Shown here one piece after another: positions 32,032 through 59,542 of a DNA stretch of 64,000 nt (the first letter of the stretch is position 1; each line of letters opens with the position of its first letter). The notes below the pieces were generated by a model. The model made no database searches. It was not told the origin of the DNA and was given only the letters and a program-made list of their open reading frames with translations. This stretch comes from a phage. The stretch is from the sequence record OZ336094.1; one strand, 5' to 3'. Both the position numbers and the translations under genes were made by a program.

Positions 32032-32034
32032 TCA

Positions 32035-32058
32035 AAGCCCCTTCGGGGGCTTATTATT
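32035..32058 (+). terminator. Rho-independent terminator
   Basis: aagcccc-ttcg-ggggctt hairpin (UUCG loop) then a T-rich tract. Confidence 0.55.
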
Positions 32059-32070
32059 TAAGGAGATTAA

Positions 32071-34890
32071 ATGTATCCTATTCCTTTATTTATGTCAACA
32101 ACATCAGCTTCAGTAGTAACAGCTACATCTATAACTACTTCCTCTATTGGTATTGCAATAGTTGGTGGTAAAAAACAACTGACATACACAGTTACACCCG
32201 AAGATGGTGCGTTATTTGATATAGCTTTTTCATCTTCAGATAATACCAAAATGGTTATAGATAATAGTGGTATGATGGAGTTTGTTGCCGAAGGTGGTTT
32301 TGATGCAATAATGACAGCTAAAAATAATTTAGGTGCTGTCTTAACTGATCAATCTGGTGGTTATGCTTCAGAATTAAGTGTGTACACTGAAAGTCTATTG
32401 GCTATGGATGTAGGCACTACTCAACAGTTGGTTGCTACAATCAGTCCAGAAGGTGCTAAAGACCTTCCAGATATGGTAATTACATACACCACAACAGATC
32501 CAGAAGTAGCTACTGTAAGCCCTACAGGATTAATAACTGCTCTTAAAGATGGCAATTGCCGTATAGGTTGTACTGCAACGTATCAAGGAACAGTTGTGGC
32601 CTCTGATAGTTCTTATTTAGGTGTTAATGCTATTCCTGTTATTTCTAATGTAACAGCCGTGGCAAACAGCTATGGAGACGTTCGTGTTGCTTGGGATGTA
32701 GCTGATCCGCTAGACGGTGATACTTATACTGTAGAAGTATTAGATTTAAGTAATAACAGTGTCCAGTGGACTACAACAACCACGAATACTTACGCCTACT
32801 TTGATATCTCTGACTCTATTCCTCTTTATGGGTTTGCTCCAACATACCTTAAAATTAGCGTTAAGAGCACCAAAGCAGCAGCCGTTATCTTTAATAACTC
32901 AATAGCTACAGATGATTCATTCATTAAAGAAGTTATTGTCTTTGCTGGACAAGATAACGTAAATGCACACTTTACAGAACTATCTGGTGCAAATAAAGCA
33001 GCAATGAGTAGCACAACAGCCCGTAATGCATATGCTACGCAACGTGGTTTAGCAAATGCTGAAGTTCTTCCGTTAAATACAGCTTCTGGATCATCAGCAG
33101 CAGATAAATATGCTGACGATAAAGCTGGAACAGGTACACCAGACAACTACTGGTATGATCTGGATAACACAGCAGATGGGCCATGCTTAACTAACTTTAT
33201 CACTAAAGTAACACCTTATGCAAGTAAGGTTAAAGCAATTATTTGGGGACAAGGTGAAAATGATGCTGTATCAGCATCTTCAACTGTTGCAGGTAGGTAC
33301 AGTAACACTACACGTTACCATGATGCTACGATAGCTATCTTTGATAAGATGCGTACAATAGTTCCTGCTTCTCAAGCAAAAATTGTTTGGCAGATCCTAG
33401 GACGTTCTTATTTATATGGTGTAGAAGTTAATGGTGTGGATTGGCAGAAGTACAGAAATGTACAAAGAACCATCTCTACAGCACGTGATGATGTTATCAT
33501 TGGTTCTTGGGTAGATGGTGCTGAACGTTACAGTGGTTATGTTTATGAAGAAGGTATTGATGGTCGTATCCATTATGTTTCTTCTGTATACCAAACAGCA
33601 GCTACAAAACTTGCTAAATCAGCAGCAGACGGTACAGACTTAACATCAACGTCACCTGTTTGGGTTGATATGGCTGTTCCAACTGGAGCAACAGCTACTT
33701 CCCAACCTAATCAAGATACAATTTTAGCATGGGATGCTCAAGGCTATAGTAAACACTACTTCCGTAATATTAACGTCTTAACCGCATCTGTATTAACTGA
33801 ACAAACGCTTAATACGAACAGTTATACGTTTACCTATGCAGATCAAGTAGAACAATATGGTTTTGCAGCAGGAACTACTATATTTGATGTTGCATATTAT
33901 GACGAAGCAAATGATGTGTTATCTCCTTTAGTACGTTTTAATGTTAACGTTACAGCAGGAACCGTAGAAGATAAACCTGTCGTGATGGACTATGATTTGA
34001 CGCAAGAAACTCTTCCATCAGATGTTAAGGTTAATGGTGGGAACTCTTTTGCTCGTGCTTCTGGAGATATACTTGTAGCCACTAACACCTTGGTTGCTCC
34101 GTTGGAGTATGTTGGTAATACCCCTGTAGGTAGACGTGTAACAGCTAACACAGCTTCACAAATTTTTGTCAACAACGCCTTAACAAGTGCAAGCCCGTGG
34201 GTAAAGACCAACTTAACTGTTGCAGCTTCATCTGATAAATCTCCGGCTGGAACTACTGCCAATGTATTCAAATTAACTCCGACTACAACCTCTGGTAGTC
34301 ATATCTTAACTGCAACATATACTAACGCGTACAACATATCTGCCGGACGTAACTGGTCTGCCTCTGTTTTCTTGAAAGCAAACGGGATTACTAAGGCCAA
34401 ACTAAGATTAAAAGCAGGAACTGAAGTTAATGAGGGTACTTTTGATTTAGCAGCAGGTACATTCACAGGAAGTGAAGCTAATATTATATCTATGGGCAAC
34501 GGTTGGTATCGTGCTATTCTGCATAAAACAGGGATAGCCAAACAGTCCTTCATAAGTTTTGAAATAATTGCCTTGGATGCAACTGGTGCGGAGATTTTCT
34601 CTGGAGATGGTACTAGTAACCTTGCAGTTTGGTTGCCACAGCTTGAAGGTGCTTCTACAGGAGAAACATCAAAAGCTGGATCGCCTTATGTCTGCACATA
34701 TCCTGGAAATTTAGGAGGAGTATCCTTCACTATACCAAGGAACGGACATACTGGTGTGGATGTTTACTATTCCAACGGAGACGTTGTTCGTGACGTATTC
34801 TCTGGTACGGCATCTACTTGGACAATAAACTACTCCAGCTTGTACGATTGGGGATCAGTCTTTATTACAGGTTTGAAATATTACGACTAA
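32071..34890 (+). CDS. Large tail fibre / receptor-binding protein with Ig-like repeats
   Basis: 939 aa; N-terminal Ig-like (BIG2-type) segments; a GQxN-containing segment (VIVFAGQDNVNAHF) reminiscent of carbohydrate esterases but without Ser at the nucleophile position; last gene of the plus-strand block. Confidence 0.5.
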   Translation: MYPIPLFMSTTSASVVTATSITTSSIGIAIVGGKKQLTYTVTPEDGALFDIAFSSSDNTKMVIDNSGMMEFVAEGGFDAIMTAKNNLGAVLTDQSGGYASELSVYTESLLAMDVGTTQQLVATISPEGAKDLPDMVITYTTTDPEVATVSPTGLITALKDGNCRIGCTATYQGTVVASDSSYLGVNAIPVISNVTAVANSYGDVRVAWDVADPLDGDTYTVEVLDLSNNSVQWTTTTTNTYAYFDISDSIPLYGFAPTYLKISVKSTKAAAVIFNNSIATDDSFIKEVIVFAGQDNVNAHFTELSGANKAAMSSTTARNAYATQRGLANAEVLPLNTASGSSAADKYADDKAGTGTPDNYWYDLDNTADGPCLTNFITKVTPYASKVKAIIWGQGENDAVSASSTVAGRYSNTTRYHDATIAIFDKMRTIVPASQAKIVWQILGRSYLYGVEVNGVDWQKYRNVQRTISTARDDVIIGSWVDGAERYSGYVYEEGIDGRIHYVSSVYQTAATKLAKSAADGTDLTSTSPVWVDMAVPTGATATSQPNQDTILAWDAQGYSKHYFRNINVLTASVLTEQTLNTNSYTFTYADQVEQYGFAAGTTIFDVAYYDEANDVLSPLVRFNVNVTAGTVEDKPVVMDYDLTQETLPSDVKVNGGNSFARASGDILVATNTLVAPLEYVGNTPVGRRVTANTASQIFVNNALTSASPWVKTNLTVAASSDKSPAGTTANVFKLTPTTTSGSHILTATYTNAYNISAGRNWSASVFLKANGITKAKLRLKAGTEVNEGTFDLAAGTFTGSEANIISMGNGWYRAILHKTGIAKQSFISFEIIALDATGAEIFSGDGTSNLAVWLPQLEGASTGETSKAGSPYVCTYPGNLGGVSFTIPRNGHTGVDVYYSNGDVVRDVFSGTASTWTINYSSLYDWGSVFITGLKYYD

Positions 34891-34897
34891 TAAAAAA

Positions 34898-34913
34898 GGA
34901 GCCATTAGGCTCC
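34898..34913. terminator. Bidirectional terminator hairpin at the strand switch
   Basis: ggagcc-atta-ggctcc hairpin flanked by A6 upstream and a T-tract downstream, between convergent gene blocks. Confidence 0.55.
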
Positions 34914-34925
34914 TTTTCTTTTATC

Positions 34926-35357
34926 TTAGTCAGTGAAAATTACGCTTACATCTTCTTTAGAAAAGAGTTTATGATCTTCACCTTTTGTCTCAAGAGTTTC
35001 ATACAGATTAAGAAGTTCTGAAACATCTTTCTCTACCAGTTTCTTCAATGTTGCAATTTTCTGTTTGCGACTCTTAATACGTTCAGCTACAACCTTACGC
35101 TGGTATCCGGCAGTACGATAACCTGAGAAAGTTACACCAGTAAGGCTTGCAGTCACAGGATCGTAGTGACGTTCAATCTGAAACTTATTAAAAGGTACAG
35201 CGTCATCACGAATAATCTTACCGCCATTACTTACTTGACGAAGACCAGTAACTTGCTCCAGTCGTGCCATAGAAATCTTTGGAGACAGACCAGAGTCCAG
35301 GTTCATACCATTGTTAATCAGTGCTTTCAGGGTGATTTTGCTGTTCAGTGTACTCAT
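34926..35357 (-). CDS. Hypothetical protein
   Basis: 143-aa ORF overlapping the 3' end region of the methyltransferase gene. Confidence 0.4.
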   Translation of the reverse strand: MSTLNSKITLKALINNGMNLDSGLSPKISMARLEQVTGLRQVSNGGKIIRDDAVPFNKFQIERHYDPVTASLTGVTFSGYRTAGYQRKVVAERIKSRKQKIATLKKLVEKDVSELLNLYETLETKGEDHKLFSKEDVSVIFTD

Positions 35358-36045
35358 TTAGTCGTTCCTCCGCTTGCTTAAAAATATTTACATCGGCTTC
35401 ACAGCCAAAGTATTCTCTACCTGTTAAAAGTGCCGCAACTTGTGTTGTTGCACTTCCAGAGAAGAAGTCTAAGACTACATCTCCTTCGTTGGTGTGTATA
35501 TTAATAAGGTCACAAAACAAAGTCAAGTGTTTTTGTGTTGGATGAAAACGATCTGCTCCTTGATAGATAGGATACTCAAACACACCCTTATGGTAGGAAG
35601 CATTGAAGGTTGGCTTCGAACCTTTAACACAAACAATAGCCATCTCTTTAGCGTTACTAAGATAGTTAACACCACTGTTGATGGGTACAGGGTTTGTTTT
35701 AATCCATTCGATAGTACGGAACATACGAAAACCAAGTGGTTCAAGGATTTCACGTAGCTCTTGGATCTTCCAGATATCATACCAAACGATGCAAGTACCA
35801 CCTTTTCTAAGCACCCTGTAGGCTTCTTTGAATACTTCTTTAAAGTAAGGAATATCTACAACATCCCAATCACCAAAGTTGTAAGATACACGGAATCTAT
35901 CCGTATCTTTTCCAGTCGGCTCTCCAGATTGAAAATTTGTGTCACGAGAAATAGCATATGGTGGGTCAGTAAGAATCAAATCTACACTATTGCTTTCGAG
36001 GGTTTGCAGGTAGTTTAATGCGGTGTTGTTTACAAATTCGCTCAT
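35314..36045 (-). CDS. DNA methyltransferase, beta-class N6-adenine or N4-cytosine type
   Basis: N-terminal DPPY motif (LILTDPPYAI) and C-terminal AdoMet motif (FFSGSATT) in the beta-class order; no adjacent restriction endonuclease, so an orphan enzyme. Confidence 0.7.
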   Translation of the reverse strand: MSEFVNNTALNYLQTLESNSVDLILTDPPYAISRDTNFQSGEPTGKDTDRFRVSYNFGDWDVVDIPYFKEVFKEAYRVLRKGGTCIVWYDIWKIQELREILEPLGFRMFRTIEWIKTNPVPINSGVNYLSNAKEMAIVCVKGSKPTFNASYHKGVFEYPIYQGADRFHPTQKHLTLFCDLINIHTNEGDVVLDFFSGSATTQVAALLTGREYFGCEADVNIFKQAEERLNEYTEQQNHPESTD

Positions 36046-48632: not shown

Positions 48633-49229
48633 TTACTCGAACCAATCGTCGCCAGCGCCAAACGCTTTAACTACATCATAAATGTCAAGTCCAGCTTTAC
48701 CTACACCATATGCTTTCAGTTTCCATTCGCTATCTTCCCGCACCAGGGAGGCAACGTGGCAAATGGTGTTACCTGCAAGTTCTGGAGCCAAGAAATCAAA
48801 ATCCAGCAGTTCAACGTTACGTTCATCATCGAAGATTTTAAGGAAACCTTCGGTAGCGTGACCAAGGCGTTTTTTACCCGTTTCGTCATCAATAGTAATT
48901 ACGAATGCAATTTCCTGTGCTTCAGCAGAGATATTATCCAGTGTAACATCAATCTGCTCCATCTGTCCTACACCGTCACGAACATCTTCACCTGCAAAAG
49001 TAGAACGTTCAGGATCAAATTTCTGTGCGTAGCATACCAGGTGGCGAGGAGACAACAGTTCCGGCAGACCAGATGCATTGTGTCGGCAAATCAGAGCACT
49101 AACATCCAGATCCAGTTTTTCGTTAGATTTCCAAGAGAATTCCAGACGAATGCGTTTCAGTGCTGGTGCAATCTTTTTCAGAGAAACTTTTTCGCTAGAA
49201 CCTTTTTTCAGGGAAATTTTCTGAGTCAT
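48633..49229 (-). CDS. terD: TerD-family protein
   Basis: ISLKKGSSEKVSLKK, LDLDVSALI, ITIDD and EWKLKAYGVG align with hallmark TerD blocks (VSLSKG..VSLSK, FDLDASAFL, VTIHD, EWKFRAVGQG). Confidence 0.75.
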   Translation of the reverse strand: MTQKISLKKGSSEKVSLKKIAPALKRIRLEFSWKSNEKLDLDVSALICRHNASGLPELLSPRHLVCYAQKFDPERSTFAGEDVRDGVGQMEQIDVTLDNISAEAQEIAFVITIDDETGKKRLGHATEGFLKIFDDERNVELLDFDFLAPELAGNTICHVASLVREDSEWKLKAYGVGKAGLDIYDVVKAFGAGDDWFE

Positions 49230-49301: not shown

Positions 49302-50096
49302 TTACGCTTTTGCTCCAAATTTTTTAACCCACTCACCAAACTCTTCGGATAGCAGTTTATCGTAAAGTTCTTCGTCAGACAAGGACAAATCTGCAATACC
49401 GATAAAATCAACATTATCGTATTCTTTTGCCAAGTCTTTCAGGAATTTAAAGTTTGCATTGCCTACACCAACCATAAACCAGTAAACAGGAGTGTTGCGG
49501 TGTTTGTTCAGCAAACTACGTACTGCTGAAGTATCCATGTTCTCCCCGTCAGTTTGGAAGAAAATCATTGCAGGAGTACGATCAACTTGTGCATCAGTAT
49601 CTACAACCTGTTCTACAACAGTACGTGTAACTTCTACACGTTCTTTTTTACCAGTTAGTTTAGCAAGGAAACCCTTAGCCGGAACTTCTTCATACTCAAC
49701 GACTTCGCGTGTAATATTTTTCATAGGTACACTACCGAAGTATGTATCATAGATCTCTTGCATTACTGGGGCATAAGCTGTACCACCATTGATGCAAACA
49801 TTAGACATACAAGAGCCGACATAATCATCATATACATCAGCCGTTGCAGGAGGCAGTTCAAAAGAAGAACTATTGAAAGCCCACATGTCAATCTGTGCAT
49901 TATCATCAAACTTCATACCAAACGGCAGCAGTTTACCTACAAAATCACTAACAGTGCCATCACGATACAGCTCACACATACTACCCGAAATATCTAAGGC
50001 ACTACCGACACGAAGAACAACATCGTTAATCTTTTTCTTACGCAGAGATACGGTAAGAGTTTCTTGACGTTTTTTAAGACTGATTTTATTGGACAT
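49302..50096 (-). CDS. vWA-domain protein (TerY-like)
   Basis: MIDAS-like motifs: ALDISGSM, GGTAYAPV, IFFQTDGEN. Confidence 0.5.
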   Translation of the reverse strand: MSNKISLKKRQETLTVSLRKKKINDVVLRVGSALDISGSMCELYRDGTVSDFVGKLLPFGMKFDDNAQIDMWAFNSSSFELPPATADVYDDYVGSCMSNVCINGGTAYAPVMQEIYDTYFGSVPMKNITREVVEYEEVPAKGFLAKLTGKKERVEVTRTVVEQVVDTDAQVDRTPAMIFFQTDGENMDTSAVRSLLNKHRNTPVYWFMVGVGNANFKFLKDLAKEYDNVDFIGIADLSLSDEELYDKLLSEEFGEWVKKFGAKA

Positions 50097-50097
50097 A

Positions 50098-50367
50098 TTA
50101 TTTCTCCTTTCTGAGTGTAATGTTAGTAACTTCTAAATCCACTTCTACCATTTCTGTATCATACGAAATACAGCTAAGTTGACCTCTTTGCGAACCGTTC
50201 AGACACATTGCTTGGTTTGTATTAACCTTAATAAACACTAAGTTTCTGAACGTATCTAAACCAGAATCTTGATAGGCAACATAATATACAAATGTATCAC
50301 CTACGTCAAGTTCTCCAAAACATTTAGGTTCATCTGATTTGTCGTCTTTGATATTAAATTTAAGCAC
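50098..50367 (-). CDS. Hypothetical protein
   Basis: 89-aa ORF translationally coupled to neighbours. Confidence 0.3.
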   Translation of the reverse strand: MLKFNIKDDKSDEPKCFGELDVGDTFVYYVAYQDSGLDTFRNLVFIKVNTNQAMCLNGSQRGQLSCISYDTEMVEVDLEVTNITLRKEK

Positions 50368-50923
50368 TGTCTTCTCCTTTACCTGCTCTCAAGCCTAAAT
50401 AGAAAGCCTCTCTGGTGATCTTTTGCAACTCGTTTAAAGAGATAGTTACAACTAAATCATCTTCAATTTCTAGCTTTGAGTCTTCTTCTGTCTCAATGCA
50501 AGTATTATGCACTTTGTGGTAAGGATTGTCAACACGTTTAAATTTATTATTTTCAGTGCTGAAGAAGCAATCTGGATCTTCTTCCCCATCACCCCAACCC
50601 TGGTTAGGATCTTCTTCAGATCTTTCTGTTGGGATCTCGCCTGTAAAGTGCTCTTCTAATACCAGAGCAATCCCATCTCCAAGATCGGAAGAGAACATCA
50701 AATTACAAACTTCTTCCCAAGGCATAGACCACTTAAATCTTTTACGATTGCCATGTTTATCTTCTTCGTTAGAGAAAACACTACCATAGCTATCATAATT
50801 CCCATACATCTCTTCGACTACCTTACCACCTTTCAAAAGAAATAGGTAGCAAGGAGAGCCATCGAAAGAGGTAGAAAGAGCAGCATTACCAGACTCTTTG
50901 CACAAGAAACTAAAACACCCCAT
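50360..50923 (-). CDS. Hypothetical acidic protein
   Basis: 187-aa ORF. Confidence 0.35.
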   Translation of the reverse strand: MGCFSFLCKESGNAALSTSFDGSPCYLFLLKGGKVVEEMYGNYDSYGSVFSNEEDKHGNRKRFKWSMPWEEVCNLMFSSDLGDGIALVLEEHFTGEIPTERSEEDPNQGWGDGEEDPDCFFSTENNKFKRVDNPYHKVHNTCIETEEDSKLEIEDDLVVTISLNELQKITREAFYLGLRAGKGEDSA

Positions 50924-51123: not shown

Positions 51124-51356
51124 TACACATTCTCCTCTTTTACCAATTCCATTGTTGAATTGTCAAAACCATCTTTAGAAGAATAGGTATAGACAGAACG
51201 TAGTTCTCGCAGGACAGTGAATACATTAGGATCATCTAACCAAGCATCCTGGAGGAGAACATAACGATCTTCATTGTCATATTGAACAGCAATCATAGAA
51301 CCAGACAGTTTGTAAATTTTAATATTCATAATATATTTCTCCTTAAAGTAGACCAC
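51123..51356 (-). CDS. Hypothetical small protein
   Basis: 77-aa ORF, coupled. Confidence 0.3.
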   Translation of the reverse strand: MVYFKEKYIMNIKIYKLSGSMIAVQYDNEDRYVLLQDAWLDDPNVFTVLRELRSVYTYSSKDGFDNSTMELVKEENV

Positions 51357-52446
51357 GTTTAACAGTTTGAATCATACCATCTTCAAGAGATTGCACTTCT
51401 TGAATGTAATCAATACGAGCAGCACGGGCTTCAGTGTTGATTCGGTTAGTTTCTTCCAACATTTTAACTAAGTTTTCTTGATCACGACGCAATGTTTCAA
51501 TATCCAATACTTGACGATTAGCAAGTTGTGTAGCTTCAATTTGGTTTTGTGCAGCCAGATCACTACCCATTGCAATAGCAGCATTAAATTCATTCAGTAC
51601 ATTGTTCTGTGTATCGGCTGCTTTCTTCTGGCGTAGACTTTCAATATACATAGAAAAGTTTGCAGAGTAAGCAGGAATAACATTATTCACAATATTACGG
51701 GCTGATCGCATCAAACTTGCAGATACTTTCTGCATACTTTGTACACGTGGCCCCATCTGAACACACAGTAAACGCAAGGCTTTCAGATCTGCAATACGAA
51801 TTTCAAGCAGATCCATAGTATCACGAGTACGTTGACGCTCTTCTACTTCATTTTCAGGTAGTGTATTAAGGCGAACTTCTTCTTTTTCATAAGTAGCTGT
51901 TAGAAGCTCTATATCCCTGTTTAAGCTAAGAGCATATTTTGCAATAGCTTCCTCTAAACGTTGCAGATATCGTAAAGAATCTTCTTCTTTTTTCAAGTCT
52001 GTTTGGAGTGTCTTTACCAAACCTTCAATACGGTTATTGATGGTGTCAAATTCTCCAAACAAATCTTCTTTCATACCTAAAACTTTCTTAACTAGTTTAC
52101 CTAAACCTTTAGATTGTTTAATAGAGTTAGGATCAAGTTGCTTTGCTTGCTTAATAAGCGCAGTTAAACGTTCACTCATTTCATCTCCCTGAGATGAACG
52201 CTGGTGTTTAAGCACTTCAGCATTAAGGTTACGAAGAGTAAGTCCTGCATCAGCACCAACCTGTTCAATCTCTTCACGAGACATTGGAGGCAGCATTTGT
52301 ACAGGGCGTGCAACAGCAGGGGCATATACAGGGCTTGCATCCATAGCACTTGGAGCAAACAAAGACTTACTTTTTTCTGTTGTTGCCGTGAATACACTCA
52401 TTTCAGACGGTTTGCTTTTTACGGCACTGATAAAAGGACTGGACAT
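51343..52446 (-). CDS. TelA-like toxic-anion-resistance family protein (tentative)
   Basis: 367-aa, mostly helical/coiled-coil with a disordered N-terminus; size, composition and neighbourhood (TerD, TerC) fit TelA/KlaB, but no diagnostic motif was verified. Confidence 0.4.
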   Translation of the reverse strand: MSSPFISAVKSKPSEMSVFTATTEKSKSLFAPSAMDASPVYAPAVARPVQMLPPMSREEIEQVGADAGLTLRNLNAEVLKHQRSSQGDEMSERLTALIKQAKQLDPNSIKQSKGLGKLVKKVLGMKEDLFGEFDTINNRIEGLVKTLQTDLKKEEDSLRYLQRLEEAIAKYALSLNRDIELLTATYEKEEVRLNTLPENEVEERQRTRDTMDLLEIRIADLKALRLLCVQMGPRVQSMQKVSASLMRSARNIVNNVIPAYSANFSMYIESLRQKKAADTQNNVLNEFNAAIAMGSDLAAQNQIEATQLANRQVLDIETLRRDQENLVKMLEETNRINTEARAARIDYIQEVQSLEDGMIQTVKRGLL

Positions 52447-52514: not shown

Positions 52515-53366
52515 TTAAACAAACATATCTAAATAATTTGTAGTAATAAATGCTCCATCTGCTTCCAGATTAACATAACCCGTGGTATTAGTAGTTAAGA
52601 AATCCAGATCGAAGGACTCTTTAACACCCCGTACCTCAACACGAGAGATATCGAATACAGGTAGTGTAACAGCCTCTTCGTGCAATACCGTACCTTTGTA
52701 GGTTGCCTTAATGATAAACTTGATATTACCTGTTCCAGCATCATATAAAACACTTTCAAACCCTTTGAGAGTATATTTATCACCAGAAGTGAAGTGCAAA
52801 GTTGCTTTGTTTACAGTACGTTTCTTACGAGGAGTTCCTTTCACACGTTTATGATCACTACGTTTTTTGTATTTAGGAATGAATACAAACGATACACTCT
52901 CAAGAAAGGTATCAACATCAAGGATTTTAATATCCTCTGTTGCAGCAAATTTTGAAGTCGTTGCATCAAAATGCTTTTCCCTGCGATCATACATAAAGAT
53001 ATCAAACCGATCTTCTAAATCAAACAAATTATGTATTTTAATTTCAGAATGCTTGCGCATTGCAGCAACCTTGAACTCTTCAAAACGTGGGTGTTCTACA
53101 AGTTCTTCAAGTTTTACACCAAAGACAGTATATTGCTTCGAAGTCTTTTCTGGTGTTGGCATTACAGAAGCATAGTCCCCGATTGCGCTCTTAAAGCAAA
53201 ATTGTTCTTGACCTGTATTTTTACCAACGAATTTACAGTATTCGTCATTGTGCATACTTTCCTTAGTAGTACCAACAAACTCAAAACCATCTTTATTCTT
53301 CTCAAGAATTTCTTGATTAAAAATCCAACCTTCCAGGCGATACACTTTACCAACTTCTAGTTTCAT
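52515..53366 (-). CDS. Hypothetical protein
   Basis: 283-aa ORF. Confidence 0.4.
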   Translation of the reverse strand: MKLEVGKVYRLEGWIFNQEILEKNKDGFEFVGTTKESMHNDEYCKFVGKNTGQEQFCFKSAIGDYASVMPTPEKTSKQYTVFGVKLEELVEHPRFEEFKVAAMRKHSEIKIHNLFDLEDRFDIFMYDRREKHFDATTSKFAATEDIKILDVDTFLESVSFVFIPKYKKRSDHKRVKGTPRKKRTVNKATLHFTSGDKYTLKGFESVLYDAGTGNIKFIIKATYKGTVLHEEAVTLPVFDISRVEVRGVKESFDLDFLTTNTTGYVNLEADGAFITTNYLDMFV

Positions 53367-53401: not shown

Positions 53402-53992
53402 TTAACGACGACGTGAGCTACTAAAACTACGTTTCGACGAAGAATAACTTTTCGAAGACTTACTATAAGAGCTAATAGGGCTTGAGTAAGACTTACGAGC
53501 AGAGTAATCACTATTCACTTTTGTTGTTGACGGGCGTGAATACGTTTGTACACTTTGCTGCTTAATTGTGTTTTGTTTAGTGGTTGTATATGTATTCCCT
53601 TGTTTATCATAAAAACGATGCTTTTGTGTTGTATATGCTTTACTATTAGTTGTAGGAGCAGCGTTGTTATTGATAATTGTTGTATTGCTACCGCCATCTC
53701 TATAACCACCACCGCCACTATTACCACTCAACATATGACCAAGAAGCATACCTGTAGCAAACTCACCTACACCAGAAGAACCACTACCGCCTCCTTGCAC
53801 AACAACTGTTGAAGGTTGTGCAGGTGCTGCTTGAACAACTTGAGGTGCAGGCTGATTTACATATTGTTCATCTACCATCTGATTTGGTGTTTGTTGGTAA
53901 CGTTGATTTTGTACATTTTCAGAATCATCACAACCTACCAGCAATGCACTACCTAAAACAACTGCAACAATAAAAGATTTAATGTTTTTCAT
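53402..53992 (-). CDS. Putative lipoprotein with Ser/Tyr-rich low-complexity tail
   Basis: Start at MKNIKS (GAGAGGG RBS); signal peptide with lipobox LLVGC; C-terminus SYSSPISSYSKSSKSYSSSKRSFSSSRRR. Confidence 0.5.
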   Translation of the reverse strand: MKNIKSFIVAVVLGSALLVGCDDSENVQNQRYQQTPNQMVDEQYVNQPAPQVVQAAPAQPSTVVVQGGGSGSSGVGEFATGMLLGHMLSGNSGGGGYRDGGSNTTIINNNAAPTTNSKAYTTQKHRFYDKQGNTYTTTKQNTIKQQSVQTYSRPSTTKVNSDYSARKSYSSPISSYSKSSKSYSSSKRSFSSSRRR

Positions 53993-54078
53993 TTGTAACC
54001 CTCTCATTTAAAGTCTCAACACAATTTTTAAAATCCCTAGAGAAACAATACATCTGTTCTCCGTTCCTGTTGATAGTA

Positions 54079-54224: not shown

Positions 54225-55202
54225 TTAAGCAACAGTCTGGTCTTCTTTTTCAGGGAAGATTAAACTTGCAACAACACCCAACCCAAGAGTACCTAACACA
54301 ATATACATACTGATCGTCGGATCAATGTGTGCTGGCAGGAAACTGACTTTTGCGTGCAGAGTTTCTGCAAACGGGTGATACATCAGTTTTACACCCACAA
54401 ACACCAGGACTACGATAACTGCTTTCTCCAGATGAACCAAATACTTCAGTGCAACACTAAGAACAAAGAACAGAGCACGTAAACCTAAGATTGCACAGAG
54501 CATCGAAGAGAACACCAGTAGAGGTTCTTGTGTCACTGCAATTACTGCTGGAACAGAGTCTACTGCAAAGATTACGTCAACCATTTCCATTACAAACACA
54601 CAAACCAGAGCCGGAGTTGCTACACGAACACCATTTTTGATTGTGAAGAACTTCTCACCATCCATCTGATCAGATACAGGGAACAGCTTACGAACAATGC
54701 GAGTAGCCCAGTGTTTAGAGTAATCAACTTCTGCATCATTATCTCCAGCGAATACCATTTTAGCCGCACAGAAAAGGATGACAGCACCGAAGAAGATATT
54801 AACATACCAGCCCAAACTCAACAAGTAAGTACCTACTGCTACAAACACACCTCGGAAGACAATCGCACCTGCAATACCCCAAAGTAGAATCTTGTGCTGC
54901 AAGTGTGTGCTTTTAATACCAAAACTTGCGAAGACTGCCACAAATACTACTAAGTTATCTACAGAAAGAGATTTCTCCAACACATACCCACTCAAAAACA
55001 AGCTCGCAAAATCAGCACCGTGTTGGAAGTATACAAAACCATAGTAGGCTAATGATACCCCAATCCAGAAAATTGACCAGCCAATTGCAGATTTAAATGA
55101 AATTTCTTTGTTTTCTCTGTGTCCAAAGAAGTCAATACAAATCGACAAGACTAAAATACCCACTAAAACAACCACATCAATAATTGGGAAACCCAGTTGC
55201 AT
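54225..55202 (-). CDS. terC: TerC-family integral membrane protein
   Basis: Multi-pass membrane protein with TerC signature blocks (YVLEKSLSVDNLVVFVAVF and EMVDVIFAVDSVPAVIAVT). Confidence 0.7.
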   Translation of the reverse strand: MQLGFPIIDVVVLVGILVLSICIDFFGHRENKEISFKSAIGWSIFWIGVSLAYYGFVYFQHGADFASLFLSGYVLEKSLSVDNLVVFVAVFASFGIKSTHLQHKILLWGIAGAIVFRGVFVAVGTYLLSLGWYVNIFFGAVILFCAAKMVFAGDNDAEVDYSKHWATRIVRKLFPVSDQMDGEKFFTIKNGVRVATPALVCVFVMEMVDVIFAVDSVPAVIAVTQEPLLVFSSMLCAILGLRALFFVLSVALKYLVHLEKAVIVVLVFVGVKLMYHPFAETLHAKVSFLPAHIDPTISMYIVLGTLGLGVVASLIFPEKEDQTVA

Positions 55203-55220: not shown

Positions 55221-55239
55221 GCGGAGGACAATCCTCCGC
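55221..55239 (-). promoter_or_regulatory. Hairpin between the upstream gene and the terC RBS
   Basis: gcggagg-acaa-tcctccgc stem-loop; no clear T-tract. Confidence 0.3.
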
Positions 55240-55279
55240 TCTATGTCTTATACTATAAACTGTTTTTAAAGAAAGTCAA

Positions 55280-55528
55280 CTAGTTCAGTTCTGTAATTTT
55301 AAGTTTATCTTCTTTGTTAATGATAGGGAAAGCTACAGCATCACCTACGTCATCAATAAAGCAAATAGCAATACCACCTTCCACTTTGCTAATCTGACCA
55401 TTAAAGGCGTGATACGGGGCAGGAACTTGATCTCCATCTTCAAGGAGAATAGCCTCGTAAACCTTGCCGATAGTACAATCACGAGTGTTTCTAAATTTTT
55501 CAAGCACTTCAACATTTACTTTACGCAT
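55280..55528 (-). CDS. Hypothetical protein
   Basis: 82-aa ORF. Confidence 0.35.
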   Translation of the reverse strand: MRKVNVEVLEKFRNTRDCTIGKVYEAILLEDGDQVPAPYHAFNGQISKVEGGIAICFIDDVGDAVAFPIINKEDKLKITELN

Positions 55529-55542
55529 ATAAAAATCCTCTC

Positions 55543-55749
55543 TTATTTGTTAGATTGAAAGATACCACGAAGTACCGCAAGAATGAACGTCACACAGACT
55601 ACACTCCAAAACGTTACAGGAACATGATGCCAGTCTAAGCCGATAATGTCAATCATATAATTGTATGCTAAAAGCAGTAGCCAACTAGGGATTAACACAA
55701 TCAAGAACACAACAATAAAACAACCTAATACTGCTAAAACACCTGCCAT
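55543..55749 (-). CDS. Small membrane protein
   Basis: 68 aa, two hydrophobic helices. Confidence 0.35.
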   Translation of the reverse strand: MAGVLAVLGCFIVVFLIVLIPSWLLLLAYNYMIDIIGLDWHHVPVTFWSVVCVTFILAVLRGIFQSNK

Positions 55750-55758
55750 ACTTTCTCC

Positions 55759-56475
55759 TTATTTCAGTTTGTAAACAATTACATTTAAACCTTTGTTTAC
55801 TAGAGTTTCTTCGATCATAAGTTTTACAATATTCCAAGAACCTCCAGCCAAACCACAACCAAGCATTGGTAAACCTACAATTTTACCGCCTGAAGATACA
55901 ACATCGTCTCCCATACTATCTAACGCATTGTAGATAGCTTCATAATTCAGGTCACGCTTACCTTCCTCACGACGACTATAACCATATTGTCCATATAAAT
56001 TATAAATTGTCAAATTGTTTTCTGTATACTTGGTAAACGTACCTAATTTTTTATAATCACCACGTTTAGTGGCACAATCTGCTTTAAACGCACCAGGCCA
56101 CTTACTTTTAATTTTTGGTGCAATACCACTACCCATAGTGCAAAAACAGTTACAGCAGTGTGCTATAGCGTCTATATCGCCTCTCTCGGCTGCTGCTAAA
56201 AGATCACCGTATACCTCAATGATACCTGCTGGATAACTTGTTACAATTTCATCTTCCCAGTACATTTTCTCTACACCACCGATCAGTGCAAAGTTTTGTG
56301 TAATGCGATCATCAATATAGTTAAGACCTGAAACATACACAGCATATTCATCCTGTGCTGTAATACCTTGTACACGAATTCTTAAGACACCATCTTTATC
56401 TGTTGCTACACGCCCAAAATCTTTTTCTGTAATATTGGTGATAGGATCTCCGAAAGTCATTACTTTATTAGACAT
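55759..56475 (-). CDS. Macro-domain protein (ADP-ribose-binding/processing type)
   Basis: DAIAHCCNCFCTMGSGIAPKI resembles the macro motif DAIVNAAN..LxGGGGV..AI; GLPMLGCGLAGGSW resembles the IAFP.ISTG.YG block; start chosen at MSNKV (AAAGGGGA RBS). Confidence 0.45.
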   Translation of the reverse strand: MSNKVMTFGDPITNITEKDFGRVATDKDGVLRIRVQGITAQDEYAVYVSGLNYIDDRITQNFALIGGVEKMYWEDEIVTSYPAGIIEVYGDLLAAAERGDIDAIAHCCNCFCTMGSGIAPKIKSKWPGAFKADCATKRGDYKKLGTFTKYTENNLTIYNLYGQYGYSRREEGKRDLNYEAIYNALDSMGDDVVSSGGKIVGLPMLGCGLAGGSWNIVKLMIEETLVNKGLNVIVYKLK

Positions 56476-57325
56476 AATAATCCCCTTTAACATTAGATTT
56501 GTTGATAATGTTGCTTTCAAAAAATTGACGTAGGAAATCAAAGTTCTCTTTATATTTTTCAATATTATTGTAGCCTTCTGCAAGGCAACCAAAGAACAGT
56601 TGTTCTACATAATACAAAGGAAGCTGTGAAAGTGCAATTTTAAAATCAACTTCGCTTTGACTCATTAGATACTTAATAGGACGAACCAAACATTTAGCAT
56701 CAGTTTCTTGCTTAATCATTTTAATAAAAGCTGCCAGGTTATTGATGTAGTTGAAGTTAAGTGCAGCTTCGGTGTTGGCTTCTGTACCTTCATACTTTGC
56801 AAAGTACAGGAAAAACGTATCGTTTTCAACACCTTCTTTGTCTAAAATTTCAATAAGTTTTTCTTCGTGCGTTCCTGTAATATTAACATCATCAATGAAA
56901 ATCAGAGTTTTATTACCCCAGAAATCACGATTGATAGAGAAAGTGTCACCATCGATCAAAGCCTTACGATCTTCTTTGCTAAGAAATCCATAATCATTGA
57001 TATAGCTCACTTTACGATGAACGATATCCCACTCCACGGCTTTACCTCCTTTGATAGAGATTAGGTAGTTGAGGTGATCTACAAAATGTTCAGATAACAC
57101 TGTAGCTGCATTTTTCACATAGTTATATGGAGATGGAATAACAACAAAACTTTCATTTACCAGTCGTTCTTCATACTTGGAAAAGAAACTTTCAGCCAGA
57201 ATGCGCCCCATTCTTTTTGCTGCCTGGTTACTACCAAACTTTAGCTTGGAATAATCTGCAATGTTAAATTTTGCTTCCTTCAGGTTAGTAAAAGTATTAG
57301 CAAAATGTTGAATTTGATTACGCAT
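56468..57325 (-). CDS. Type I phosphoribosyltransferase
   Basis: PRPP-binding loop LIFIDDVNITGTHEEK. Confidence 0.55.
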   Translation of the reverse strand: MRNQIQHFANTFTNLKEAKFNIADYSKLKFGSNQAAKRMGRILAESFFSKYEERLVNESFVVIPSPYNYVKNAATVLSEHFVDHLNYLISIKGGKAVEWDIVHRKVSYINDYGFLSKEDRKALIDGDTFSINRDFWGNKTLIFIDDVNITGTHEEKLIEILDKEGVENDTFFLYFAKYEGTEANTEAALNFNYINNLAAFIKMIKQETDAKCLVRPIKYLMSQSEVDFKIALSQLPLYYVEQLFFGCLAEGYNNIEKYKENFDFLRQFFESNIINKSNVKGDYYV

Positions 57326-57974
57326 TAATAAGTTCCTCTTTTTTAAGTTTAGCCAACAAGTCTTCTGGATTAATAATATGACAGAACTTCATCCCTATGT
57401 CAACAGCTTTTCCATCATAAATCAAACTATCTCCAACGTGTAAAATCTCCTCTGGTGCGAGATCAAACGTTACCATTTCATCAAAAGAGAGTTTAAAAAA
57501 CCTGGGATCTGGTTTACACAAGCAAAACTCATCAGAAAAATGCATAAAATCGAATGGTAATTTTGTCAAGCCAGAATATACAGCTAAGAAACTACCAGGT
57601 ACAAAATTGGTATTGCTCTTAATACTCAAAGAATAGGTTGAACTTAGCTCTTCCAACTTCTTGCAAAGTTCAGGATTCAATGTTGGAGGATGTTTTATAA
57701 ACATTGCTAAACAGTCTCTTTTTAACCCATCCACTTTATCAAGATCAATGTTCAAACGAGTAGAAAGTGTTACCCAAGCATCCTTAGACGTTCCACAAAT
57801 GCCTTTTTCTGCTTTTAAATCCAGGAGAGTTTTTACCTCTTTATATACGGTAGCTGCTTCTACCTCAGAACAAGAGGCATACTCGGCAATAACCTTGTTG
57901 CGTTCTTCTGCATACAAAGGATTAGCAGTAATAAGAGTATTCCATACATCAAAAGAAATATGCTTAACAGTCAT
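57318..57974 (-). CDS. HAD-superfamily hydrolase (phosphatase-like)
   Basis: N-terminal ISFDVWNTL (HAD motif I) and C-terminal HVGDS; start at MTVKH after a GGAGGA RBS. Confidence 0.55.
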   Translation of the reverse strand: MTVKHISFDVWNTLITANPLYAEERNKVIAEYASCSEVEAATVYKEVKTLLDLKAEKGICGTSKDAWVTLSTRLNIDLDKVDGLKRDCLAMFIKHPPTLNPELCKKLEELSSTYSLSIKSNTNFVPGSFLAVYSGLTKLPFDFMHFSDEFCLCKPDPRFFKLSFDEMVTFDLAPEEILHVGDSLIYDGKAVDIGMKFCHIINPEDLLAKLKKEELINA

Positions 57975-58143
57975 TTTTAATCCTCCGTCCAAAAGAATAT
58001 CATCTGCTTAATTTTATTGATCTCTTGATGTAGTAACTTTCCAGCATGTGATTGATCTTTAATATTGACAGCAAGAATTTCAAGCTCCGTTAGTTTTTCT
58101 TGGATAGCTTTATATTCATCATCTGTAAGCATTTTCTTCCCCT

Positions 58144-58347
58144 TTAGAATGGTAATCTTTGTATGTCACTTATCCCCACACCAAGAAGTCTAGCAATATC
58201 CTTATCTAAAAGCAACTCTTTTTGTTCTAAAATGTTAATCAGATCTCCTAATACTTCTTTAATGTCACGATCATTTTTAGCAACGTGACCACCTGCGGTA
58301 TCAACTTTATCTTTAAAAACAAAATAATGATCCATAATACCCTCCAT
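58144..58347 (-). CDS. Hypothetical small protein
   Basis: 67-aa ORF. Confidence 0.3.
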   Translation of the reverse strand: MEGIMDHYFVFKDKVDTAGGHVAKNDRDIKEVLGDLINILEQKELLLDKDIARLLGVGISDIQRLPF

Positions 58348-58353
58348 ATAAAT

Positions 58354-58375
58354 AAAGGAGGCTTTCGCCTCCTTT
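58354..58375. terminator. Terminator hairpin
   Basis: aaaggaggc-tttc-gcctccttt with T-rich flanks on both strands. Confidence 0.4.
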
Positions 58376-58381
58376 TATCAC

Positions 58382-59542
58382 TTAGTAAGAACGACCACCA
58401 AACACATACTCTGTGTAGTTTTTACGTTCTTTGTTTTTAATAACAACTTCAATGTTGTTACCTTTATCATCGGTGAACATAAAGTGATAACCGTCACCAC
58501 CCATTGTACGAATGTGTTTTTCATCATACGTTAGCAAGATACGGTCTACACCCCAGTAGTAGTCACCTTCTTCATCTTTATCTTCTACAGTAACGATCCC
58601 TTCCATTTCAGGAAGATGCTCTTCTCCTGACTTATGATCTACAGCTACAACATAACGATTACCGCTAAACAAACCTTGTGCTGTCATACCGTCAATATCG
58701 GTATCTGACGAAACATCTCCTGTACGATCTACACCGTTAACTTTCAGAAGTTTAACTTCTTTTGCAGCATAGCGGTGTTCAGTAATACTGATACCCATTA
58801 ATGCAAGTGCATCAGAGAATTTGTCATTAGGGTAACGGTTAAGTTCTTCTACTAATGACTGAACAATATCAAAGTTCAAATCCACGGAGAGATTATAAAG
58901 CGTTTCAAAATCTGGTAAGAAGGCTTTGTTCTCCAGATTTTTAGCCAGATAATCATCCATAGTAGCTTTAGGTAGTTTCTTATAGCTAAAACTGTAGAAA
59001 ATACGGCTAGGACGATTACGCAAAAATTCTGATACATAACCATCATTTTTAGTCAATACAAACAGTTTGTCGTAGCCACCAACACCATCCAGCAGGGTAA
59101 GCAAACCATCTTGTGCATCTTTTTCAGCATACAGTTTATCAAATTCATCGATCATAATCATCACAGGTTGTGTGATTTTAGACATAAAGTTGATAAAGCC
59201 TTCACCATTAAAAGCACTACCGATAGAAATAGTAGGAATACCCATTTCACGAAGAGCAGAAGACAGCATTTTAGCTTGCAAAGTTTTACCGCTACCTTTC
59301 GTACCCTCAAGGAGAACACCTGTGTTTTTACCTTTGCGGCTAAGGAACGTCTTGATAATACGTTCTGATTTATCATCAGTATCACCGTATGTTACTGAAG
59401 GGACTTCCATATCGTTTTTAGGATACAGGAAGAACTCGCCACTTTGAGTAACACCTACACCAAAAGTTCCTGCTGGAATTTCTTCAATATCTGTACCAGA
59501 CTTCTGACGCAGGAAGATTTGATTGCCGAATACTGTAAACAT
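58382..59542 (-). CDS. P-loop ATPase of unknown function
   Basis: Walker A GTKGSGKT and Walker B-like IMIDEFDK; 386 aa. Confidence 0.45.
   Translation of the reverse strand: MFTVFGNQIFLRQKSGTDIEEIPAGTFGVGVTQSGEFFLYPKNDMEVPSVTYGDTDDKSERIIKTFLSRKGKNTGVLLEGTKGSGKTLQAKMLSSALREMGIPTISIGSAFNGEGFINFMSKITQPVMIMIDEFDKLYAEKDAQDGLLTLLDGVGGYDKLFVLTKNDGYVSEFLRNRPSRIFYSFSYKKLPKATMDDYLAKNLENKAFLPDFETLYNLSVDLNFDIVQSLVEELNRYPNDKFSDALALMGISITEHRYAAKEVKLLKVNGVDRTGDVSSDTDIDGMTAQGLFSGNRYVVAVDHKSGEEHLPEMEGIVTVEDKDEEGDYYWGVDRILLTYDEKHIRTMGGDGYHFMFTDDKGNNIEVVIKNKERKNYTEYVFGGRSY

Follow-up and report, generated by a model that had tools for sequence, protein, structure and literature searches.

A HAD hydrolase–PRTase_3 gene pair beside Ter genes, and a probably independent macro-domain gene, in a phi92-like Escherichia phage

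Introduction

The Ter system confers resistance to tellurite, colicin, and phage. It contains a phosphoribosyltransferase (PRTase) and a HAD-family hydrolase described as "signal biosynthesis" enzymes (PMC7824862, section 3.4.10; Iyer et al. 2021, Viruses 13:63), for which a nucleoside-like metabolite has been predicted (Anantharaman, Iyer & Aravind 2012, Mol Biosyst 8:3142, as the prediction is repeated in later papers including PMC8115787). Among phages, Acinetobacter phage ME3 carries a fairly complete version, others occur in "certain other related smaller tailed phages" (PMC7824862), and the role proposed for Ter genes in phages is competition with superinfecting phages (PMC7824862, citing Anantharaman, Iyer and Aravind 2012). 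The product of the Ter-associated PRTase and HAD enzyme has been a prediction since 2012, and our literature search found no experimental identification of it. Here, we analyze a 64,000-nucleotide stretch of phage DNA (sequence record OZ336094.1, hereafter the window), in which positions 55,759 to 59,542 encode a macro-domain protein, a PRTase, a HAD-fold hydrolase, and an AAA+ ATPase.

An earlier note on this interval, made from the DNA letters and predicted translations, had read the four minus-strand genes as one operon building or dismantling a ribose-phosphate compound. All four genes are present, and the four domain calls survive profile searches (Table 1); what the note observed thus holds in part, as does what it made of the observation. 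The conserved unit in the interval is a HAD gene followed by a PRTase_3 (PF15610) gene. We favor, with moderate confidence, the reading that the interval holds three functionally separate things (a Ter-linked HAD plus PRTase_3 pair, a macro protein acting against ADP-ribosylation, and an ATPase) instead of one four-enzyme pathway. The advance is modest, because both the gene association and its occurrence in phages are already in the literature: the nucleoside-like effector that the note raised as one possibility is the same as the published Ter prediction for PRTase plus HAD (PMC7824862, PMC8115787), and the phage offers a minimal form of it that lends itself to experiment.

The 6.1-kb stretch around these genes shares 100% identity with Escherichia phage Paula (LR865361.1; Stephanstirmvirinae, Justusliebigvirus, phi92-like) and 98 to 99% identity with more than 50 sister phages, among them phi92, whose gene numbers we use, and three phages of the BASEL collection.

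Results and Discussion

The HAD–PRTase_3 Pair

To compare gene neighborhoods, all window proteins were searched by tblastn against PRTase_3 loci. The HAD gene (gp187) lies directly upstream of the PRTase gene (gp186) in about 28 of the 29 loci examined, which come from phages and four bacterial phyla; the prokaryotic loci, 21 in number, were obtained by scanning one genome per prokaryotic species (Rhizobium/Ensifer/Sinorhizobium, Bacteroidales, Peribacteria, and the actinobacterium Pedococcus). Among phages, the HAD gene is immediately 5′ of the PRTase gene in the window, phAPEC8, Xanthomonas phage XaC1, Rhizobium phage RHph_Y65, and Caulobacter phage CcrColossus, and the same order recurs in three metagenomic phage contigs as well as in genomes of Rhizobium/Ensifer, Bacteroidales, Peribacteria, and Pedococcus. 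None of the 21 prokaryotic loci has a macro or an ATPase gene, with the exception of L003, a phAPEC8-like phage contig binned into a metagenome-assembled genome (MAG). The layout, which the earlier note had found unlike known phage NAD-salvage layouts, does have a known match: the HAD–PRTase_3 pair is conserved in Ter clusters of bacteria and phages.

The PRTase was found in 157 of 50,697 phage records. A tblastn search of the PRTase and HAD proteins against 72,556 PLSDB plasmids gave matches only in Rhizobium, Sinorhizobium, Hymenobacter, and Paraburkholderia and none in Enterobacteriaceae; enterobacterial ter plasmids are therefore not detectably related to the pair, and an origin from an enterobacterial ter island or plasmid is rejected on the same result.

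Several observations concern variants of the pair. Rhizobium johnstonii pRL10 (L032) and other large conjugative plasmids of Rhizobium and Sinorhizobium carry the pair alone, without Ter genes (on pRL10 about 1 kb from repA), and in related Rhizobium phages a NUDIX gene follows it. Two tandem, divergent PRTase_3 paralogues stand 3′ of the HAD gene in Pedococcus (L023, 9908-11628) and Peribacteria (L022, 1911-3604), an arrangement that hints at several acceptor substrates or at a heteromeric enzyme.

Linkage of the Pair to Ter Genes

Genes for TerC, TelA, a vWA protein of the TerF type, and TerD, overlooked in the earlier note, lie within 9 kb downstream of the pair in the window (48.6-55.2 kb). 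With these four Ter genes directly downstream, the PRTase and HAD genes head a phage-borne Ter cluster. Comparable clusters occur in bacteria, where the gene order is TerC/DUF475, vWA-TerF, TerD, TerD, HAD, PRTase_3, PRTase_3 in Pedococcus (L023) and HAD, PRTase_3, P-type ATPase, three TerD, three vWA/TerY in a Bacteroidales MAG (L018). In four phage loci (L024, L025, L026, and L028), TelA, vWA-TerF, TerC, and TerD lie at most 10 kb from the pair; in XaC1 and CcrColossus, Ter genes are present at other places in the genome. TerD of the window type is present in 144 phage records, close to the number for the PRTase, and the counts by taxon are nearly equal (TerD versus PRTase: Escherichia, 106 and 105; Campylobacter, 5 and 5; Caulobacter, 4 and 4). 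In three of the records labeled as Campylobacter phages (MG065645.1, MG065650.1, and MG065646.1; 'Campylobacter phage A145/B15/D1'), gp186, TerD, or the macro protein is identical or nearly identical to the protein of E. coli Stephanstirmvirinae, and the host labels look doubtful.

The window module shares with the described Ter-linked PRTase plus HAD module the PRTase_3 family, the adjacent HAD gene, and a neighborhood of TerC, TerD, TerF-type vWA, and TelA genes, and the Ter clusters of Pedococcus and Bacteroidales hold direct homologues of the pair. It differs in its setting, a virulent 146-kb E. coli myovirus and not a cell or a jumbo phage, and in the macro gene and small open reading frames (ORFs) that stand between the PRTase and TerC genes in Stephanstirmvirinae. 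No ATP-grasp amidoligase, TIM-barrel C-C lyase, or TerB was found in the Pfam-scanned ORFs of the 44.3-59.5 kb region (gp174, gp176, gp177, and gp181 being outside the scan), and no TerY-kinase/phosphatase components were found near the window pair. With no extended biosynthetic partners in the scanned ORFs, the window module is a minimal version of the system.

Other genes accompany these clusters. Within that of the window, the gp180 ORF (53402-54007) encodes a lipoprotein-like signal sequence (…LLVGC) ahead of a long low-complexity tail rich in Q/S/G/N/T and has no Pfam match; gp175 and gp179 (50360-50923 and 52515-53366), which lie between Ter genes, are conserved (76% identity for gp175 in phAPEC8), likewise have no Pfam match, and may be uncharacterized components of the phage Ter cluster. 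A GmrSD-type restriction gene (L023, 12466-13311) flanks the Pedococcus Ter cluster, and the metagenomic phage contig L024 has an Acb2/Tad1-hairpin gene of the anti-CBASS/anti-Thoeris sponge type (19368-19592) about 9 kb from its Ter and PRTase genes.

The Phosphoribosyltransferase gp186

The gp186 protein, which has 306 detectable homologues, matches PF15610 over its full length with 143.5 bits (cut-off 28.7). It has an intact phosphoribosyl pyrophosphate (PRPP) loop, LIFIDDVNITGTHE; the loop LIFIDDVxITGTHE is invariant among 21 aligned homologues (44 to 100% identity), with D145, D146, T150, G151, H153, and E154 retained in all of them. The AlphaFold model, which is confident (predicted local distance difference test score, pLDDT, 89.7), has a type I PRTase fold closest to that of ComF, together with a family-specific C-terminal helical domain at residues ~185-280; the PurR and PyrR regulators and the PRPP-binding toxin ShosT are also among the fold matches. 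The likeness to ComF/ComFC is distant, with 13% identity between gp186 and Helicobacter pylori ComF (PDB 7p0h), and gp186 has neither the N-terminal zinc-finger region nor the competence-gene context of those proteins, whereas its C-terminal helical domain is its own. No solved structure for PRTase_3 is detectable by sequence, and our literature search found no functional or experimental study of PF15610/PRTase_3.

GenBank labels in relatives vary across the interval ("putative orotate phosphoribosyltransferase", "putative phosphoribosyltransferase", "putative macrodomain protein", "phosphatase", "HAD-like", and "ATPase"), and the first of them raises the alternative of ordinary nucleotide salvage, in which an orotate phosphoribosyltransferase (OPRT) would work with a nucleotidase. 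The similarity of gp187 to the YjjG and pyrimidine 5′-nucleotidase models of NCBIfam, which is weak and far under cut-off, would fit the second half of that scheme. The NCBIfam profile search of gp186, however, matched no model, those of the OPRT/PyrE families included; given this, the lack of a sequence-detectable structure, and a fold nearest to ComF, the orotate label is unsupported. An ordinary orotate PRTase is rejected on Pfam, NCBIfam, PDB sequence, and fold comparisons, and we regard the salvage alternative as a whole as highly improbable.

The module might instead make a noncanonical base or nucleotide for hypermodification of phage DNA, since PRTase-type chemistry could in principle supply modified nucleotides and the nucleotide-metabolism genes NrdD and NrdG lie alongside. 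To this proposal we assign a minimal probability: the same pair occurs in bacterial Ter clusters and on Rhizobium plasmids, no genes for a kinase or for polymerase-linked modification accompany it, and the unusual sensitivity of phi92-like phages to restriction–modification makes hypermodification unlikely.

A described phage chemistry that uses PRPP is NAD+ salvage or reconstitution (NadV/NAMPT plus NadM/NMNAT; NARP-type), with which the window shares a context of NAD/ADP-ribose conflict, gp185-homologous macro genes adjoining NAMPT and NUDIX genes in another phage contig (L034). The earlier note had set this chemistry aside, and rightly: gp186 is a type I, ComF-like protein and not a type II NAMPT barrel, and Pfam and NCBIfam searches of the block gave no NAMPT, NMN adenylyltransferase (NMNAT), or PRPP-synthetase-like gene and no ADPR-PP synthetase/Namat pair. 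NAD salvage is accordingly rejected.

The HAD Hydrolase gp187

The assignment of gp187 to the HAD fold stems from a Pfam match just under its cut-off, a phrog_14393 match at 7e-119 (Table 1), and matches to several NCBIfam HAD-IA subfamilies. Thirty HAD homologues share motif I, SFD[VLF]WxTL; motif II, SN[TS]; motif III, KP; and motif IV, GDxxxxD. In gp187, motif I reads FDVWNTL, where D9 is the Asp nucleophile and a Trp occupies the Asp+2 position; among solved proteins, this heptapeptide occurs only in PDB 2om6, an uncharacterized protein. HAD members without Asp+2 include dehalogenases (with an aromatic residue at this position), phosphonatase (Ala), and P-type ATPases (Thr). The retained nucleophile, Lys, and metal-binding acidic residues argue for phosphoryl-transfer chemistry. 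That gp187 would dephosphorylate the PRTase product, as had been proposed, is a reasonable but unproven reading of these motifs: the nucleophile, Lys, and acidic residues speak for it and the replaced Asp+2 does not.

The Macro-Domain Protein gp185

The best sequence and fold matches of gp185 are to the ALC1-like class of macro domains. In a phmmer search of the PDB, it matched SCO6735 (3e-15), BT1257 (4e-15), and TARG1 (3e-10), with DarG weaker; in Foldseek, TARG1 was the top match (1.7e-12; TM score 0.90, target-normalized), and BT1257, DarG, and SCO6735 were also found. The NCBIfam DarG model (NF048014) gave 5e-13 and 48.9 bits, against a cut-off of 250, over positions 4-147 of 338. PADLOC matched gp185 to DarG at 1e-13, and this was the sole match that its defense models gave, with nothing for the PRTase, HAD, ATPase, or Ter proteins.

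The active site points to the same class. N109 and Q163 are invariant in the macro family (alignment A2; Q163 in 28 members), and the SCO6735-type Gln and the GCGLAGG loop are conserved. Compared with TARG1, gp185 is without the Lys84/Asp125 dyad, Lys84 being replaced by Gln and Asp125 by Ala in GCGLAGG; compared with DarG, it is without Lys80 and the C-terminal domain. The GQ of its NLYGQYG segment (Q163) aligns with the GQ of the GQHG motif of SCO6735, which we take to contain Gln85. In SCO6735, Gln85 is essential and stands in for the catalytic Lys of TARG1 and DarG (PMC9411070), and the enzyme strips DarT-made ADP-ribose from thymidine in single-stranded DNA and acts on proteins too (PMC9411070). 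Profile searches of the block ORFs found no DarT-like neighbor of gp185.

Ahead of the macro domain, gp185 has an N-terminal extension of ~85 residues (56221-56475), which is restricted to phi92-like phages and one 53%-identical metagenomic relative (P0122), whereas other family members are bare domains of ~150 residues. AlphaFold gives residues 1-80 a pLDDT below 55, and no fold can therefore be assigned to the extension.

The distribution of the macro gene differs from that of the pair. The domain is present in 2,934 of the phage records, mostly without the PRTase and with T4-like, Felix O1-like, and Pseudomonas phages among them, which makes it ~19 times commoner in phages than the PRTase; the two adjoin only in Stephanstirmvirinae and close metagenomic relatives. 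In phAPEC8, the macro gene encodes a plain 157-residue domain and is separated from the PRTase gene by 13 nt. This commonness, together with an adjacency confined to Stephanstirmvirinae, means that a shared three-enzyme pathway is not supported. From its family, active-site residues, and distribution, gp185 is most likely an independent counter-defense gene, inserted here, whose product would reverse ADP-ribosylation.

Anti-DarT factors encoded by phages are established. A precedent for the role proposed for gp185 is AdfM (PhiKZ gp104), which removes DarT2-made ADP-ribose from DNA and is a proven anti-DarT2 factor (Cell Rep 2026, PMC13309987). Like gp185, AdfM is a stand-alone phage macro domain; the similarity between the two is marginal (BLASTP E = 0.004, 24% identity), and gp185 falls on the SCO6735/TARG1 branch and not on the DarG2-like one. 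Two tandem gp185-homologous macro genes also occur in L034, a 368-kb phage-like contig, beside genes for NAMPT, NUDIX, SIR2, a SAK_2-type HAD protein, and a deaminase; this cluster is an NAD/ADP-ribose conflict island without PRTase_3.

Proposed Explanation and Points Against It

The analysis establishes the protein families, the intact PRPP-loop and macro active-site motifs, the conserved pairing of the genes, their linkage to Ter genes, and their distributions; the enzymatic activities, the product, and the biological role are inferred from these. We propose that the type I PRTase would join PRPP to a base or another nucleophile to give a 5′-phosphoribosyl compound, the phosphoester of which the HAD enzyme would process to yield a nucleoside-like small molecule. 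Made in the infected cell, this molecule may be sensed by, or act with, a membrane-associated complex of TerD, TerC, TelA, and vWA proteins; according to published speculation, the outcome could be altered envelope or ion handling that, for example, excludes superinfecting phages or protects the infected cell. Independently of the PRTase, gp185 would remove ADP-ribose that DarT-type host ADP-ribosyltransferases place on phage DNA or proteins.

A number of observations weigh against parts of this scheme. Rhizobium plasmids and the Rhizobium phage RHph_Y65 carry the pair with no Ter genes nearby, so Ter linkage is frequent but not obligatory, and our literature search found no experimental report of an activity or product for any PRTase_3/HAD pair. 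HAD phosphatases conserve an Asp at +2 as the general acid/base (PMC4081830); in the present family, an invariant Trp (D-x-W) takes the position of this Asp in all 29 homologues with an intact motif I, and simple dephosphorylation by gp187 is therefore not assured. We have already described the closeness of gp186 to ComF. To our knowledge, no transferase activity has been demonstrated for ComF, and gp186 could thus be a PRPP-binding sensor. In the phi92-like phages, finally, the start of the macro gene overlaps the stop of the PRTase gene, and the PRTase-macro-TerC order is kept in a relative of 53 to 76% identity; a lineage-specific functional tie between macro and PRTase is therefore conceivable.

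Two of these points lead to alternatives of their own. One is that PRTase_3 serves as a sensor or regulator that binds PRPP or nucleotides, in the manner of PurR, PyrR, or ComF, or as a PRPP-consuming effector, and that the HAD substrate is a different one. The fold matches to ComF (the best), PurR, PyrR, and ShosT are in keeping with this, as is a HAD protein without Asp+2; on the other hand, the acidic pair and TG motif of the PRPP loop and many other residues are invariant, the strict association with a hydrolase, seen in taxa very far apart, agrees with a pathway of two steps, and the tandem PRTase_3 paralogues of Pedococcus and Peribacteria suggest substrate diversification. We consider a sensor or effector unlikely.

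The second alternative keeps the HAD, PRTase, and macro proteins of Stephanstirmvirinae in one pathway, in which the macro domain would bind or trim the ribose-phosphate or nucleoside product or an ADP-ribose-like derivative. The HAD/PRTase and PRTase/macro junctions are start/stop overlaps of 8 nt (ATGCGTAA and ATGTCTAA, respectively), and translational coupling of the three genes is therefore plausible; the order from PRTase through macro to TerC is shared with phAPEC8, where the PRTase is 65% identical, and with contig L033, where the macro protein is 53% identical, and the N-terminal extension of the phi92-like macro protein is lineage specific. Yet no macro gene adjoins the pair in bacteria or in five other phage lineages, the macro domain is far more widespread among phages than the PRTase, that of phAPEC8 is plain and detached from the PRTase gene, and the macro active site is predicted to be that of a de-ADP-ribosylating hydrolase. 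A single pathway thus seems doubtful to us, and a Ter-linked pair beside an independent macro gene is the reading that we retain.

A bolder version of the Ter-linked reading is that phi92-like phages carry a minimal, self-contained small-molecule signaling system of their own, in which the HAD and PRTase_3 enzymes, possibly with the extended macro protein, would make or edit a new ribosylated signal inside the infected cell that switches the phage TerD/TerC/TelA/vWA membrane complex. We give this a slim chance. If true, it would offer the simplest system for identifying the long-predicted Ter 'nucleoside-like metabolite', and the D-x-W HAD protein would catalyze something different from simple phosphate hydrolysis.

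In any case, an E. coli phage that is virulent and genetically tractable and that has, next to four Ter proteins, just the two core enzymes is a compact place to seek the Ter product, with close relatives in the BASEL collection, and the same phage could reveal what Ter proteins do for a virus. The analysis also corrects two annotations, since gp186 should not be labeled an orotate PRTase and gp185 is a predicted ADP-ribosylhydrolase of the TARG1/SCO6735 type, not a "phosphatase". The interest that remains lies in the Ter product, the atypical D-x-W HAD protein, and the lineage-specific insertion of a macro gene with an N-terminal extension.

Layout of the Block and the ATPase gp190

Every gene of the region is on the minus strand. 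Of the description of the four genes as packed and translationally coupled, the packing stands and the coupling is plausible for HAD, PRTase, and macro with their overlapping junctions; the description does not extend to the ATPase gene, which a terminator-like hairpin and two small conserved ORFs separate from the HAD gene and whose adjacency is not conserved. The compact block consists of seven genes, in the order gp189-like, gp188-like, HAD, PRTase, macro, gp184, and gp183, and stops at a promoter-like site and a hairpin upstream of TerC (Table 1).

Table 1. Features of the block and of the downstream Ter cluster, in window coordinates
Feature	Coordinates	Strand	Evidence and remarks
TerD-domain protein (phi92 gp172)	48633..49229	-	PF02342 5e-28
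vWA domain protein, TerF C-terminal type (phi92 gp173)	49302..50096	-	PF10138 7e-39
TelA-family protein (phi92 gp178)	51343..52446	-	PF05816 5e-34
TerC/Alx-family integral membrane protein (phi92 gp182)	54225..55202	-	PF03741 1e-38; TIGR03718 1.6e-96, above cut-off
Promoter-like site (TTGACT-16-TATAGT), then GC-rich hairpin GCGGAGGAttgtCCTCCGC	55221..55279	-	In 77-nt gap upstream of TerC
Small ORF, 82 aa (phi92 gp183)	55280..55528	-	phrog_17459; last gene of block
Small hydrophobic (membrane-type) ORF, 68 aa (phi92 gp184)	55543..55749	-	phrog_16065; 60% identity in phAPEC8
Macro-domain protein (phi92 gp185)	55759..56475	-	PF01661 E = 2e-7
Type I PRTase, PRTase_3/'PRTase ComF-like' (phi92 gp186)	56468..57325	-	PF15610 E = 1.1e-41
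HAD-fold hydrolase (phi92 gp187)	57318..57974	-	PF00702 26.2 bits (cut-off 26.4); phrog_14393 7e-119
Small ORF, 51 aa (phi92 gp188-like)	57977..58132	-	phrog_24275; stop codon 2 nt before HAD start
Small ORF, 67 aa (phi92 gp189-like)	58144..58347	-	phrog_17780; first gene of block; 49% identity in phAPEC8, directly after NrdG
Terminator-like hairpin, AAAGGAGGC-GAAA-GCCTCCTTT	58354..58375	-	Between ATPase gene and seven-gene block; terminators annotated there in LR865361.1 (Paula)
AAA+ ATPase (phi92 gp190)	58382..59542	-	PF00004 E = 1e-6; phrog_2376

In phAPEC8 and L003, there is no ATPase gene between the NrdG and gp189-like genes, and in the sister genus Phapecoctavirus the ATPase gene lies ~15 kb from the PRTase gene. 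The ATPase family is found in 303 phage records, some of them from Lactococcus and Bacillus phages; many belong to crAss-like phages and phages of Gram-positive hosts that have no PRTase. The ATPase is an unrelated neighbor in a separate transcription unit, outside the module.

At the other end of the block, phAPEC8 has an annotated promoter at the same place before TerC, and the hairpin GCGGAGGAttgtCCTCCGC would either belong to the TerC leader or terminate the block upstream. In bacteria, riboswitches often control TerC/Alx genes; the TerC leader of the window is only ~77 nt long, and an Rfam scan of the window gave no family at threshold, riboswitches included. Elsewhere in the window, the cumulative GC skew (examined at ~32000-36000) peaks at ~32-34 kb and changes sign there, matching the switch from plus- to minus-strand genes.

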